Notes: a model not told the origin generated them from the letters alone. 64,000 bases of DNA from Candidatus Limnocylindria bacterium (GCA_036003765.1 DASYSC010000012.1:4787-68786), one strand, 5' to 3'. Shown: positions 5,597 to 12,022, counted from the first letter of the stretch. Made by a program: numbers and translations.

Positions 5597-6178
5597 ATGG
5601 CGATCGACGAGAAGGCCCCCGCGAGGCCGATCGACTTCGAAGAGGACGTCATTCAGCGACGTCCGGTGACCACGCAGGCCGGTCTCGGTACCCCCGATCC
5701 GATGAGTCCGACGCCGGGCGTCCTGGCGAACGACGACAACATCGTCTTCACGACGGTGAGCAACCTCGTGAACTGGGCCCGCTCGCGCTCCCCGTGGCCG
5801 CTCGGCTACGGGCTGGCCTGCTGCGCCATCGAGATGATGGCGGCGTCGATGTCGCATCACGACACCGCGCGGTTCGGTATGGAGGTCTTCCGCTCGAGCC
5901 CGCGGCAGGCCGACGTCATGATCGTCGCGGGTACCGTGACCCACAAGATGGCGCCCCGGCTCCGTCGTCTGTACGAGCAGATGCCTGAGCCGAAGTGGGT
6001 CATCGCCATGGGCAATTGCGCGTCCTCGGGCGGCGAGTTTTGGGACAGCTACTCCACGCTCCAGGGCGTCGACACCGTCGTGCCCGTCGATGTCTATGTG
6101 GCGGGCTGCCCGCCGCGCCCCGAGGCGCTCCTCGAAGGGCTCCTGCGGCTCCGCGAAAAGATCGCGAAAGGTGGATAG
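5597..6178 (+). CDS. nuoB: NADH-quinone oxidoreductase subunit B-like (cluster N2 carrier)
   Basis: [27 protein letters not shown] and [12 protein letters not shown] give the complete NuoB/Nqo6 Cys pattern. The track ORF starts at 5471 inside floT. ATG 5597 lies 27 nt after the floT stop. Confidence 0.9.
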
Positions 6179-6181
6179 CGC

Positions 6182-9408: not shown

Positions 9409-9613
9409 CGCGAGCGATGCGCAGCGCAGCGGGTGGCACGGGGGAGCGGGGGTTGCGCGCGATGCGCGGGTGCCCCGGGGACCCGTCCGGGACGACGCGT
9501 GCGGTATGTCGAGAGAACGGAGGACGGGGAGGGTGCGCGAGCGCGCGACCCCCCGACCCCGTGACAGGACCCGCTGCGCGGCGCGCCGATGGCGTCGATA
9601 GAGTGGCTGCGAC

Positions 9614-12022
9614 ATGAGTTTGCTCGAGAGATACACGCAGCCTGCGGAGTCGCAGATCCCCACGGTCTCGCACAGCGGCGAGATCCCAAGCGGTCAGCCG
9701 ACGTGCACGATCTGGATCGACGGGAAGGAAGTCACGGCGATCCCCGGCGAAGCGATCTTGCGAGCCGCGCAGCGCGCTGGGTTCGAGGTGCCGACGCTCT
9801 GCGACGACGAGAAGCTCGCTCCGGCCGCCGCGTGTCGCATGTGCCTGGTGGAGATCGAGGGCTACCACCGCCCGATGCCGTCCTGCCATTTGCCGGTAGA
9901 GCCCGACATGAGGATCACCCAGGCCTCGGAGTCGCTGTTCAAGCTGCGCCGCCAGAACCTCGAGTACATCCTCAGCGACCACAACGCCTACTGCATGCCG
10001 CCGTGCCAGATCAGCTGTCCGACGCACATCGACATACCCGGCTACCTGGAGCTCATGTCGAAGGGCCAACACGTGGAAGCGGCGCGCCTGGTCAAGGAGG
10101 TCCTGCCGTTCCCATACATGCTGGGACTCGTGTGCCCAAAACCGTGCCAGGAGGTCTGCCGCCGCGGGCTGGTCGAGGAAGAGATCGCCATCTGCCAGTG
10201 CCACGGCTTCACCGGCGAGCTCGTCATGGAAATGGACAAAGCGCCCACGCCATTTCCGCAGCTCGCGGCGACAGGAAAGCGCGTGGCTGTCGTCGGCGCG
10301 GGGCCGGCCGGAATGACCGCGGCGTACTACACAGCGCTCAAGGGTCATGCCGTCACGGTGTTCGACATGATGCAAAAGCAGGGCGGCATCGCGCGGTATG
10401 GCATCCCCGAATACCGCCTCCCGAAGGTGAAGCTCGACAAAGAGCTGAACTCTGTGTGGCAGCTGCGGGACACGGACTTCAGGGGCGGGATGATGCTCGG
10501 CCGCGATTTCAGCCTCGACGATCTCTTCACCCAGGGTTACGACGCGGTCTTCCTCGGGATCGGCGCGTGGCGCTCGAACGAGCTCCGGATCCCTGGCGAG
10601 GATCTCCCTGGGGTGATCGAGGCGATCAACTACCTCCGCATGAACGCGGAAGGCGACCCTGTACCGGTTGGGAAGGGCCAGAAGGTCGTCGTCATCGGCG
10701 GCGGGTTCACCACGTTCGACTGCTCGCGGACCTCGCGCCGCCTGGGTGCGGACGTCACGGTCGTGTATCGGCGGTCGCGCAAGGAGATGGGCGCACATTA
10801 CAGCGAGGTCGACGATGCTGAGCACGAGGGCATCAAGCTGGAGTTCTTCGCCTCGCCGGTGAAGATCGTCGAGAAGAATGGTCGCGTCGGCGGGATCGAA
10901 TTCCAGCGCATGGCGCTCGGCGAGCCCGACGCATCGGGACGGCGTCGCCCGGTCCCGATCGAGGGCTCGAACTTCGTGATTGAGTGCGACACCGTCATTC
11001 CCGCGATCGGCCAGGTGCCCAATCTCGACTTCTTCGAGCGCGAGTCGGGCGTGAAGAAGACGAGGCGCGAAACGATCGTCACCAACGGCGCGCTTATGAG
11101 CGACCGGCCCGGGGTGTTCGCCGGCGGCGACTGCCAGATGGGCGCGGTCACCGTGATCCAGTGCGTCGCGCAGGGCAAGCTCGCGGCGAAGGCCATCGAT
11201 CGCTACCTGGCGGGCGACGACATGGCGCGCGTCGCCGCGGAGATAGCGGAAGAGGAAGCGGTCCCCGAGCTCATCGACATCGTTCCGTACAAGCCCGAGG
11301 AGCCGCAGGTGCGTATGCCGATGCTCCCGTTCAAGGAGCGCGAGCTCAGCTTCCAGCTCATCGAGAACGGCTACGACAAGGCCGCCGCTGAGAAGGAGGC
11401 CGCGCGGTGCCTGCAGTGCGTATGCCCCGATGTCGGGCGCTGCCACCTGCAGCGGCTTTCACTCGAGCACGGTCTCACTGACAACCGCTTCCACCGCGCG
11501 GAGCCAGTCGACTACCACGACTACGAGTACGACTTCAGTCACGACTTCATCCTTCGCGACCTGAACAAGTGCATCAACTGCACGCAGTGCGTCCGGATCT
11601 GCCGCGACGTGATCGGTGCGAACTGCTACGGCCTCATGGGCGGCGGGTACGACTCGATCGTCACGACGCCGTGGAACGTGTCTCTCAAGTACACCGACTG
11701 CGTGTCCTGCGGCGCGTGCGCCGAGACATGTCCGACCGGGGCGCTGATGATGCGCGAGCGGGACCTGCAGACCTACGAGCTCGACATCGTCCGCTGCATC
11801 TACTGCGGCGACTGCGTGGAGGTCTGTCCACATGGCGCGCTCGGCGAAACGCCGAACTTCGAGCTTTCGACGTACGGCCGCTTCGGGAGGACGGTGCTCG
11901 CGAAAGAAGAGCTCGCCGCCGCGCGTACGTGGAAGCCGTCGGAGGAGATTCCGCTCGATGGTCACAACGCGCCGCGCCCGCCGGAGATCCGGCCGCCCGG
12001 ACCGCCGCGCTGGGGCGCCTGA
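9614..12022 (+). CDS. multidomain Fe-S flavoprotein: 2Fe-2S ferredoxin + GltD-like NAD(P)H/FAD oxidoreductase + NuoG/HoxU-like 4Fe-4S + 2x4Fe-4S ferredoxin
   Basis: N-terminus CTIWIDGKEV...PTLCDD...AAACRMCLVEIEG (NuoG/HoxU 2Fe-2S). CMPPCQISCPTHIDIPGY...LVCPKPCQEVCRRG and KRVAVVGAGPAGMTAAYY...GIPEYRLPK (GltD/SudA type). CLQCVCPDVGRCHLQ and KCINCTQCVRICRDV (NuoG N5/N4-like). CVSCGACAETCPTGAL and CIYCGDCVEVCPHGAL (ferredoxin pair). Confidence 0.8.
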   Translation: MSLLERYTQPAESQIPTVSHSGEIPSGQPTCTIWIDGKEVTAIPGEAILRAAQRAGFEVPTLCDDEKLAPAAACRMCLVEIEGYHRPMPSCHLPVEPDMRITQASESLFKLRRQNLEYILSDHNAYCMPPCQISCPTHIDIPGYLELMSKGQHVEAARLVKEVLPFPYMLGLVCPKPCQEVCRRGLVEEEIAICQCHGFTGELVMEMDKAPTPFPQLAATGKRVAVVGAGPAGMTAAYYTALKGHAVTVFDMMQKQGGIARYGIPEYRLPKVKLDKELNSVWQLRDTDFRGGMMLGRDFSLDDLFTQGYDAVFLGIGAWRSNELRIPGEDLPGVIEAINYLRMNAEGDPVPVGKGQKVVVIGGGFTTFDCSRTSRRLGADVTVVYRRSRKEMGAHYSEVDDAEHEGIKLEFFASPVKIVEKNGRVGGIEFQRMALGEPDASGRRRPVPIEGSNFVIECDTVIPAIGQVPNLDFFERESGVKKTRRETIVTNGALMSDRPGVFAGGDCQMGAVTVIQCVAQGKLAAKAIDRYLAGDDMARVAAEIAEEEAVPELIDIVPYKPEEPQVRMPMLPFKERELSFQLIENGYDKAAAEKEAARCLQCVCPDVGRCHLQRLSLEHGLTDNRFHRAEPVDYHDYEYDFSHDFILRDLNKCINCTQCVRICRDVIGANCYGLMGGGYDSIVTTPWNVSLKYTDCVSCGACAETCPTGALMMRERDLQTYELDIVRCIYCGDCVEVCPHGALGETPNFELSTYGRFGRTVLAKEELAAARTWKPSEEIPLDGHNAPRPPEIRPPGPPRWGA

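Follow-up and report, generated by a model that had tools for sequence, protein, structure and literature searches.

The five-gene cluster

Five co-directional genes related to those of respiratory complex I (Nuo) lie on the plus strand at positions 5597–12022 of a 64-kb stretch of DNA (64,000 nucleotides; GCA_036003765.1, DASYSC010000012.1:4787–68786), here called the window, from a Candidatus Limnocylindria bacterium. What enzyme do they encode? The original prediction, made from this DNA alone, placed them between a flotillin gene (3795–5570) and a phosphatase gene (Y_phosphatase3, 12040–12732), which is where they are found, and it leaned towards a soluble or peripherally attached oxidoreductase arranged like a Hox-type hydrogenase. 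The window has a G+C content of about 68%, and close homologues bear the annotation Candidatus Limnocylindria, the name of a Chloroflexota class with the alias Ellin6529.

The first gene, nuoB (5597–6178, 193 residues), matches PF01058 and NuoB models at 246 bits and encodes the quinone-module (Q-module) subunit that carries cluster N2. It is followed by nuoD (6182–7363; PF00346, NF004739), which specifies 393 residues when read from an ATA codon at 6182, the first canonical ATG lying at 6287. Gene 3 (7494–8213, 239 residues) encodes the N-terminal half of NuoI fused to a cysteine-free helical domain resembling NuoE and StnA. The fourth gene (8203–9408, 401 residues; PF01512, PF10589, SLBB) is NuoF-like and comprises the flavin mononucleotide (FMN)-domain core together with the N3 4Fe–4S motif. 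The fifth (9614–12022; Fer2_4, Fer4_20, Pyr_redox_2, Fer4) encodes a fusion protein of 802 residues. A scan for promoters and terminators was uninformative, with no promoter-like site, and one terminator-like site against 2.5 expected by chance.

Are the remaining complex I genes nearby? Pfam scans of 38 of the 48 predicted open reading frames (ORFs) revealed no nuoA, C, H, J, K, L, M or N in the window. The other 10 were judged by eye to encode threonyl- and phenylalanyl-tRNA synthetases, IF-3, L20, MutS2, a Nudix protein and PBP1, or received no assignment. A tblastn search with all E. coli Nuo proteins found nothing in the window beyond the cluster, and the two kinds of scan agree with the absence of these genes that the original prediction had reported.

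NuoB and NuoD

Is the catalytic pair that of complex I or that of a hydrogenase? NuoB is 57% identical to its E. coli counterpart, and the full N2 cysteine pattern ascribed to it (CC...C...CP; C75, C76, C141 and C171) is invariant in 62 orthologues. NuoD scores 428 bits against NF004739, over the cut-off of that model. Its top PDB matches are cyanobacterial NdhH (348 bits; about 50% identity across the aligned region) and Thermus Nqo4 (331 bits), while the hydrogenase-type MBH and FHL reach only 137–156 bits. Near its N-terminus NuoD reads GPQHPSTHGVLRL and at its C-terminus VLGDVDR; these termini are of the complex I type, without the CxxC ligands of NiFe enzymes, as had been read from the sequence and as the alignments bear out. 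The quinone-loop motif GPQHPSTHG, the tyrosine of DY and the aspartate of LDVG are intact, both in the sequence itself and when it is aligned to E. coli NuoCD and to further NuoD proteins. We assume for these residues (His of GPQHPxxHG, Tyr of xDY, Asp of xDxG) the roles in the quinone site that structures of the Thermus and E. coli enzymes assign to them. With the N2 ligands and the quinone-site residues intact, NuoB and NuoD are ordinary Q-module proteins of complex I, the genuine pair that they had been taken for.

A NuoI divided between two proteins

Where, then, is NuoI? No single polypeptide of the cluster carries both of its CxxCxxCxxxCP motifs. Gene 3 has four cysteines in all, every one invariant, and they form one motif, C53xxC56xxC59xxxC63P (7650–7685), which aligns with the first motif of TYKY/NuoI. 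Its residues 7–75 occupy positions 1–66 of the 121-position NuoI model TIGR01971, and in solved structures of TYKY/NuoI the N-terminal segment plus the first cluster motif align with residues 4–74 (E = 2e-8). Gene 3 thus keeps the membrane-proximal N-terminal segment of NuoI, which is conserved.

The second half of NuoI lies at the C-terminus of the 802-residue protein (residues ~719–785, YELDIVRCIYCGDCVEVCPHGALGETPNFELSTY...KEEL; 11768–11968), where it is recognized both by TIGR01971 and by PDB matches. Residues 714–756 correspond to TIGR01971 positions 69–111. When the last 88 residues were searched on their own, the top ~45 PDB matches were almost solely NuoI, TYKY and NdhI chains (E = 6e-11), always at the second NuoI motif and the NFE...Y...KE..L signature that follows it. 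Scored separately the two halves reach 41 and 63–66 bits. Joined (gene 3 residues 1–89 and 802-residue protein residues 721–802), they give one unbroken NuoI match over positions 1–111 at 89.5 bits.

Might each motif have a partner elsewhere? Two further motifs of the 802-residue protein, C653–C663 and C696–C706, directly upstream of the last one, align with the closed motif pair (M1/M2) of HydA- and StnC-type proteins; that this pair is closed we presume from solved HydA and StnC homologues and from the ligand pattern of CpI. Since M1 and M2 are already paired, the motif of gene 3 and the final motif of the 802-residue protein have no partner left but each other. The four motifs contain 16 cysteines, all invariant, together with all other cluster ligands (31–62 species), and so are all 31 motif cysteines of the 802-residue protein. 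We conclude that the two proteins sum to one NuoI. Gene 3 had been called a NuoI/NuoE chimera; a chimera it is, but only the N-terminal half of NuoI is there. The 802-residue protein had been described as a 2Fe–2S, GltD and NuoG-like fusion, which it is, though that description missed the second half of NuoI in the last ~85 residues.

The flavoprotein cassette

What has come to lie between the two halves of NuoI? Residues 33–733 of the 802-residue protein align along their whole length with three chains of known structure, Caldicellulosiruptor NfnA (9bov_A, E = 1e-163), Sporomusa ovata StnC (8oh5_C, E = 8e-155) and an archaeal NfnA (9n5u_A). The alignment with NfnA and StnC spans a GltD module, binding flavin adenine dinucleotide (FAD) and NADPH, that is inserted in a NuoG-like iron–sulfur (Fe–S) domain; the protein thus has the make-up of a BfuA-type subunit with such an insertion. 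The GltD/NfnB-like module itself (residues ~127–535; 9992–11218; PF14691, PF07992; PRK12814 at 575 bits) has two 4Fe–4S clusters, FAD and an NADPH site in which the motif YRRSRKEM is kept (YRR...EM). The order of parts along the protein is a NuoG-type 2Fe–2S domain, the inserted GltD module, 4Fe–4S domains of the NuoG/HydA type, and the C-terminal half of NuoI. The NuoG-like part stops after its ferredoxin-type clusters, and the molybdopterin-like domain is missing. In StnC, electrons from NADPH and FAD pass along Fe–S clusters to the bifurcating module StnAB (PMC10482914).

The NuoF-like protein finds its best PDB matches in HydB, NfnB and StnB (E = 1e-69), at their core only. The full chains measure 584–630 residues, and the N- and C-terminal Fe–S domains of the bifurcating HydB and StnB are lacking here. 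Its description as a divergent NuoF was apt: NGYDADP stands for NADE(G/S)EP, SSVET for NNVET and Arg for Lys, and these substitutions are conserved within the family.

The C-terminal part of gene 3 (residues ~119–195; 7848–8078) is a helical domain of the NuoE/StnA/HydC kind without the 2Fe–2S cysteines. Searches with phmmer linked it to HydC, FdsG and NfnC, and matches of residues 119–195 to HydC, StnA, NfnC and NuoE are weak (E = 7e-4 to 0.2). The domain also aligns with homologues that bear PF01257 and keep the complete 2Fe–2S cysteine motif. A Foldseek search with the AlphaFold2 model of gene 3 gave no significant match; the top ~35 chains belonged to the NuoE family. Of the N-module features of complex I, the window cluster thus lacks the NuoE 2Fe–2S cluster, several canonical FMN/NADH residues of NuoF and the molybdopterin-like domain of NuoG. 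Bifurcating enzymes are marked by a core of extra Fe–S clusters in BfuB (B2–B5) plus a 2Fe–2S cluster in BfuC (PMC9304861). That core is absent from the window cluster and present in the Thermoleophilia locus L079 described below.

Read in order, the three genes are NuoI-N::StnA′, StnB′ and StnC′::NuoI-C, which is what an in-frame insertion of an stnABC-like cassette into nuoI would give.

Relatives within complete nuo operons

If the split NuoI belongs to a membrane-bound complex I, do relatives of these genes keep company with the membrane subunits? Gene 3 was searched exhaustively against 1.84 billion cluster representatives. Homologues of the same architecture were found at 27–50% identity, many of them with a complete NuoE domain. 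Wherever a more distant homologue of the three-gene module could be placed, it stands next to nuoH in a nuo operon. Locus L079 (loci are designated by L and a number) reads nuoA-B-C-D-H, a 253-residue gene 3 homologue, a 645-residue NuoF, an 827-residue GltD fusion ending in the NuoI half, and J-K-L-M, where the contig locus stops. Its NuoF has an N-terminal 2Fe–2S domain and two C-terminal 4Fe–4S clusters, making it a full bifurcation-type HydB/StnB, and its NuoE is complete. The same layout with shorter NuoF proteins recurs in L080 and L081, and a metagenome scan with a NuoH profile added L109, L153, L162 and the low-G+C L105. The nearest outgroup of the window's gene 3, L082 (50% identity, with the NuoE domain likewise truncated), has nuoH before it and nuoF after it. 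The three-gene module therefore occupies the exact nuoI slot, between nuoH and nuoJ, of otherwise complete operons that have no nuoE, F and G between nuoD and nuoH.

A simpler arrangement occurs in the metagenomic locus L108 (4200–6340; G+C 0.60) and in L111, namely nuoA-B-C-D-H, one protein, and J-K-L-M-N. The single protein consists of the NuoI N-terminal segment, a GltD module and both NuoI 4Fe–4S motifs, without any NuoE, F or G. The presence of GltD within NuoI, with NuoE and NuoF both missing, speaks for the GltD/NADPH site as the indispensable input. In L108 no stop codon separates the end of nuoH from the GltD/NuoI protein in that frame.

From which organisms do these operons come? Labels taken from 90%-identity clusters assign L079 to Thermoleophilia (Actinomycetota), and L080 and L081 to Chloroflexota, some members being labelled Limnocylindrales or Limnocylindria. 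Towards L079, L080 and L081 the window type shows 43–47% identity in NuoD and 55–64% in NuoB; L080 and L081 share 58% and 74%, respectively, with one another.

Three further loci from the scan with the NuoH profile, L118, L138 and L158 (G+C 0.63–0.67), read nuoA-C-D-H-J-K-L-M-N, with no room for nuoB or nuoI. Their two Fe–S subunits must be encoded elsewhere, and they represent a different kind of split complex I. L158 is labelled Acidobacteriota/Vicinamibacterales, and L118 and L138 carry no label; none of the three was assigned as the missing partner of the window cluster.

Conservation and neighbourhood in Limnocylindria

How constant is the cluster among close relatives? A contig scan with NuoD, taking one genome per GTDB species, returned 73 loci, all of at least 75% NuoD identity, a range beyond which paralogues would fall. 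Most are labelled Chloroflexota or Limnocylindria, and four metagenome-assembled genomes (MAGs) are labelled otherwise. The original prediction had proposed examining synteny in related genomes, and the same order of the five genes recurs at all 73 loci, which places the cluster far from a chance arrangement. Mean column identity to the window is 0.87 for NuoB, 0.83 for NuoD, 0.81 for gene 3, 0.70 for the NuoF-like protein (NuoF′) and 0.88 for the 802-residue protein, and the cluster is under strong purifying selection. Within 10 kb on either side, ~1 Mb in total over the 73 genomes, there is no nuoA, C, H, J, K, L, M or N.

The order along the locus is inositol monophosphatase, an NfeD–flotillin pair in one subclade, nuoB, nuoD, gene 3, nuoF′, the 802-residue fusion gene, Y_phosphatase3 in some, and a methyltransferase gene of family PF02636. 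The NfeD–flotillin pair (3018–5570 in the window) separates nuoB from the inositol monophosphatase gene only in the window and in L005, L008, L010, L011, L060 and L062. Because nuoB adjoins the phosphatase gene directly in most Limnocylindria, the flotillin neighbour is incidental.

Does the same hold for the downstream methyltransferase? The PF02636 gene (14185–15459, plus strand; E = 3e-53, the true start probably lying ~150 nucleotides inside the ORF) is of the NDUFAF7/MidA family, and its product matches DUF185 and the NDUFAF7 homologue 5ztz in the PDB. It follows the 802-residue fusion gene at all 29 loci whose contig reaches that far, directly in most and behind Y_phosphatase3 in ten. 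Homologues 34–38% identical to it lie ~4–5 kb upstream of nuoA in the complete operons L080 (1–610) and L167 (2730–3833). Mitochondrial NDUFAF7 methylates an arginine of the NuoD homologue, and the LHRG arginine of NuoD is conserved here. The methyltransferase is thus probably a complex I maturation factor; its association with the cluster we put forward tentatively.

How does translation of nuoD begin? The conserved N-terminus of the protein is encoded without an ATG, GTG or TTG (6176–6290 in the window; the same junction in L002 and L005–L075), and the upstream codons look coding, with an entropy of 0.70 at third positions against 0.40–0.42 at positions 1 and 2. The likely start in the window is ATA at 6182, 3 nucleotides past the nuoB stop. 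A first codon could be assigned at 63 loci, and at 55 of them this conserved position is CTG (39), ATA (14) or ATC (2). It lies 1–9 nucleotides past the nuoB stop wherever that stop is correctly located, and a GGGCGG or AAGGTGG stretch precedes it. In three species (L041, L044, L064) no ATG, GTG or TTG occurs anywhere before the essential GPQHP loop. These features suggest conserved non-canonical initiation, or termination–reinitiation coupled to nuoB. A NuoB–NuoD fusion by readthrough of the stop codon, which the shared frame in the window would allow, is excluded by the differing frames of other species such as L002.

Several smaller variations were seen around the cluster. The nuoF′ and fusion genes overlap by 4 nucleotides in other species and lie 205 nucleotides apart in the window, where the spacer holds a 28-nucleotide inverted repeat (9407–9434/9569–9596). 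A subclade (L019, L020, L025, L034, L047, L061 and L070) has a conserved extra ORF of ~199 codons between these two genes (e.g. L070 13165–13767), its product bearing an N-terminal CxxC and two predicted transmembrane helices. One MAG, DATCNH01, holds two copies of the cluster on different contigs (L037 and L051; NuoD 80% and 78% identical to that of the window); either the bin combines strains, or the cluster is truly duplicated.

Between the phosphatase gene and a minus-strand gene of 359 codons, the window carries a scrambled, pseudogene-like patch (12795–12988, extending to ~13052). It consists of a 70-nucleotide copy (81%) of the interior of the methyltransferase gene (14415–14484) followed by a 107-nucleotide copy (90%) of the 3′ part of the fusion gene (11777–11883), and is probably the scar of a rearrangement that separated these two genes. 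Farther downstream, ~29 kb (15600–44200) lie between the methyltransferase/tRNA-Val genes and a bactofilin gene, and encode two OmpR-type response regulators, a large GDSL-lipase/fibronectin type III (fn3) protein, a polysaccharide biosynthesis cluster and a Pro/Thr-rich secreted GH5 cellulase of 1185 residues. In L002 the distance from methyltransferase to bactofilin is only ~1.7 kb.

The membrane arm in Limnocylindria

In Limnocylindria, then, no linkage joins nuoB, nuoD and the cassette to nuoA, C, H and J–N; in Thermoleophilia and, within the Chloroflexota, in other lineages (some of them labelled Limnocylindria) all of these genes form one operon. Does the class possess the missing subunits at all? 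In a comparative genomics study of 2026, KEGG Orthology (KO) identifiers pooled over genomes of the Limnocylindria family CSP1-4 include, in the freshwater and the sediment set alike, K00330–K00333, K00335, K00337 and K00339–K00343 (nuoA, B, C, D, F, H and J–N) and K00266 (gltD), and in the accessible part of the same source data K00334, K00336 and K00338 (nuoE, G and I) do not appear (PMC13212565). A Supplementary Note to that study reports complex I in all four families. Such lists are what the split architecture predicts, since gene 3 and the 802-residue protein would escape the KOs for nuoE, nuoI and nuoG. At the level of KOs, and to the extent that these data are accessible, nuoC and a membrane arm do exist in the class. 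The original prediction had allowed for an alternative electron-input module serving a membrane arm encoded elsewhere, and the presence of nuoA, C, H and J–N in these pooled tables lends support to that part of it. On a contig labelled Limnocylindria (L165), nuoJ-K-L begins after unrelated genes on the opposite strand; fragmentation of the nuo operon therefore occurs in the class. The metagenome scan with the NuoH profile returned no identifiable membrane-arm locus of Limnocylindria.

Interpretation and alternatives

We consider it likely that the products of the five genes make up, apart from NuoC, the peripheral (redox) arm of a membrane-bound, proton-pumping variant of complex I with a GltD-type NADPH site. 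How might such an enzyme have arisen, and how might it work? A cassette resembling stnABC or nfnABC (a NuoE-like protein, a NuoF-like protein and the N-terminal part of NuoG with GltD inserted) would have entered nuoI, leaving three genes in the nuoI slot, NuoI(N-half)::NuoE-like, NuoF-like and NuoG′/GltD::NuoI(C-half). The two halves of NuoI would rejoin in trans as the two-cluster ferredoxin fold that holds N6a and N6b, and the rejoined NuoI would tether the flavoprotein module to NuoB and NuoD. By homology, NADPH would reduce the FAD of the GltD module, and NADH might possibly react at the remodelled NuoF site. Electrons would then pass through the GltD and NuoG-type Fe–S clusters to the split NuoI, on to N2 in NuoB and finally to quinone at the NuoD/NuoH site, so that some ten Fe–S clusters would lie between NADPH (perhaps NADH) and quinone. 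Proton pumping and energy conservation would fall to NuoA, H and J–N. We infer the docking to the membrane arm, the electron donor and the direction of flow alike.

Several observations weigh against this reading. The KO tables that list nuoC and the membrane-arm genes are pooled per habitat and speak for the class, not for any one genome with the cluster. Complete operons of the L080 and L081 types are labelled Limnocylindria or Limnocylindrales, and the window proteins resemble them no more than they resemble the Thermoleophilia type (NuoD 43–47% in each case), so that the cluster could be an extra, paralogous arm instead of the only one. AlphaFold2 models gene 3 alone poorly, with a predicted local distance difference test (pLDDT) score of 48 and confidence only in the N-terminal helix and the helical domain 120–180. 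Finally, the departures of NuoF from the canonical FMN/NADH residues make its use of NADH uncertain.

How seriously should a second arm be taken? NuoB2, NuoD2, split NuoI, NuoF2 and the GltD fusion would exist beside a complete L080/L081-type operon and vie with its counterparts for one NuoC and one membrane arm, so that complex I would come in two isoforms. The 90%-identity clusters of L080-type NuoD and L081-type NuoK include proteins of Candidatus Limnocylindrales/Limnocylindria. The window proteins are equidistant from L079, L080 and L081, whose own L080–L081 pair is closer, and the lack of nuoC and nuoH is expected of a partial duplicate. On the other hand, no assembly with both types was found, and class-level labels may conceal different orders. 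The NDUFAF7-like gene stands beside one cluster per lineage, in versions only 34–38% identical, which fits a single copy in different lineages. The accessible part of the pooled KOs of 11 freshwater CSP1-4 species lacks K00334, K05586 and K00127, annotations of a kind that L080-type gene 3 proteins seem to receive, to judge by JGI product names. We therefore think two isoforms possible but rather unlikely. The same freshwater KO set, as far as it is accessible, mildly favours the window type as the only redox arm in its genomes, with the labelled complete operons stemming from other orders, and the pattern of the NDUFAF7-like gene fits too; we put the chances of this at slightly better than even.

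Could the five proteins instead form a soluble or loosely attached NAD(P)H-linked oxidoreductase, in the manner of HoxEFUYH and the group 3 hydrogenases, with the NuoD pocket reducing a soluble substrate? This was the leaning of the original prediction. It would account for diaphorase-like components in a cluster that has neither membrane-subunit genes nor nuoC within 10 kb in 73 genomes, and a cluster coexisting with a complete operon would be free to evolve a new role. NuoB and NuoD are nevertheless typical of complex I, with the quinone-site residues intact and without NiFe ligands, and we know of no soluble enzyme built on NuoB and NuoD. The N-terminal segment of NuoI, which to our knowledge sits against NuoH in every known homologue, is conserved, and the distant homologues of the three-gene module that could be placed all lie in nuo operons beside nuoH. 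A soluble enzyme thus seems very improbable, and that leaning is not borne out.

A last alternative leaves the complex as proposed and changes only its mode. It might run in reverse, quinol oxidation driven by the proton-motive force supplying NADPH for CO2 fixation in H2- and CO-oxidizing cells, or it might confurcate or bifurcate, with NADH and ferredoxin co-oxidized as proposed for Nuo-Bfu. MAGs of Limnocylindria (Ellin6529) are predicted trace-gas oxidizers with RuBisCO (bioRxiv 10.1101/2020.08.06.239558), and such a metabolism requires electrons to be driven backwards to NAD(P)H; operation in reverse is physiologically plausible for these cells. Confurcating Nuo-Bfu complexes were predicted by Schut et al. 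(PMC9304861), and the Thermoleophilia locus L079 retains the full bifurcation-type HydB/StnB of 645 residues with a complete NuoE. The window version, however, lacks the extra BfuB clusters and the BfuC 2Fe–2S cluster that are the marks of bifurcating Bfu enzymes, and direction of flow cannot be read from sequence. As an account of the window enzyme we regard these modes as unlikely.

What would a redox arm of complex I with a GltD-type NADPH site mean? Where complex I variants without NuoEFG obtain their electrons is a long-standing question; here the genes point to a GltD-type NADPH module wired covalently into NuoI. If this is confirmed, a respiratory complex I could link the NADPH pool, without intermediary, to the quinone pool and to the proton-motive force, which matters for organisms thought to live on H2 and CO from the air and to fix CO2. 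The enzyme would also offer a natural case of a two-cluster ferredoxin domain divided between two proteins, and would record how a soluble electron-bifurcating enzyme was taken over and pared down to serve as a respiratory input module. Limnocylindria make up to about 34% relative abundance in soil samples listed in the accessible part of the source data mentioned above (PMC13212565), and their respiratory enzyme may therefore be quantitatively important. The Thermoleophilia version provides a possible route to a culturable test organism.

More broadly, the cluster may represent a widespread, undescribed class of complex I, an NADPH-accepting or NADPH-producing proton pump of Limnocylindria, Thermoleophilia and other lineages. 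In it a GltD-containing cassette of the Stn/Nfn type would be spliced into NuoI, N6a and N6b would come from two polypeptides, and in Limnocylindria the redox arm would be uncoupled, possibly as a second, exchangeable arm. We hold the chances for and against this wider proposal to be even.

Comparison with known systems

How does the proposed enzyme compare with those already described? The literature yielded no description of a split NuoI, of an Nfn/Stn-type module in the nuoI slot or of the five-gene arrangement; its coverage was incomplete, so novelty is not proven. The split-NuoI variant is common among soil bacteria that are themselves abundant and, it seems, has escaped description. With complex I the cluster shares NuoB with N2, the quinone-site residues of NuoD, the NuoI signatures, the NuoF core with N3, the NuoG-type 2Fe–2S domain and, in its relatives, a membrane arm in the same operon. 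It differs in that NuoI is on two polypeptides, NuoE is without its 2Fe–2S domain, and NuoG lacks the molybdopterin-like domain and has an inserted GltD FAD/NADPH module. The E-, F- and G-type genes occupy the nuoI slot instead of lying between nuoD and nuoH, and in Limnocylindria nuoA, C, H and J–N lie apart from the redox-arm genes.

The original prediction saw the subunit logic of HoxEFUYH mirrored here. This is right only as shared ancestry, that of the diaphorase parts (NuoE/F/G, HoxE/F/U and BfuABC) and of the small/large pair. In contrast to Hox and the other group 3 [NiFe]-hydrogenases, the cluster has no NiFe ligands (GPQHPSTHG and VLGDVDR stand at the ligand positions), NuoI is present and the relatives are membrane operons. 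The closest solved relatives are StnABC and NfnABC of the Bfu family (PDB 8oh5, 9bov/9bp5 and 9n5u). The 802-residue protein aligns with StnC/NfnA over ~700 residues, GltD insertion included; NuoF is closest to StnB, NfnB and HydB; the C-terminus of gene 3 resembles StnA and NfnC; and the gene order is likewise A-B-C. Unlike those enzymes, the StnC homologue here has a NuoI half in place of the C-terminal molybdopterin-like domain, the StnB homologue is without the N- and C-terminal cluster domains on which bifurcation depends, the StnA homologue has no 2Fe–2S cluster, and the whole module is fused to the Q-module of complex I.

The nearest described concepts are two, the predicted Nuo-Bfu complex I and the Mbx-like operons in which GltD takes the place of NuoI. 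Nuo-Bfu has been predicted in Geobacter, Deferribacteres, Planctomycetes and Nitrospirae as a complex of 14 subunits in which BfuABC replaces NuoEFG; NuoI is nowhere in that text, and BfuA is not described there as of the Nfn type (Schut et al. 2022, PMC9304861). There too a complex-I-like operon has its NADH module replaced, mid nuo cluster, by one of the BfuABC type. The module described here is of the Nfn/Stn (GltD) type, sits in the nuoI slot and splits NuoI, and its window version is stripped of the bifurcation clusters; against the 14 genes of the Nuo-Bfu operon, the operons of the relatives have 13 and the window cluster 5. In the Mbx-like operons of Thermotoga and proteobacteria, a GltD-related flavoprotein replaces NuoI and is described as the NAD(P)+-reducing site (Degli Esposti 2015, PMC4758237). 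They share with the present cluster a GltD-type NAD(P)H flavoprotein at the position of NuoI, and L108, with GltD inside a single NuoI polypeptide, is of that style. What sets the window cluster apart from them is a NuoD of genuine quinone type and the presence, besides, of parts derived from NuoE, NuoF and NuoG.

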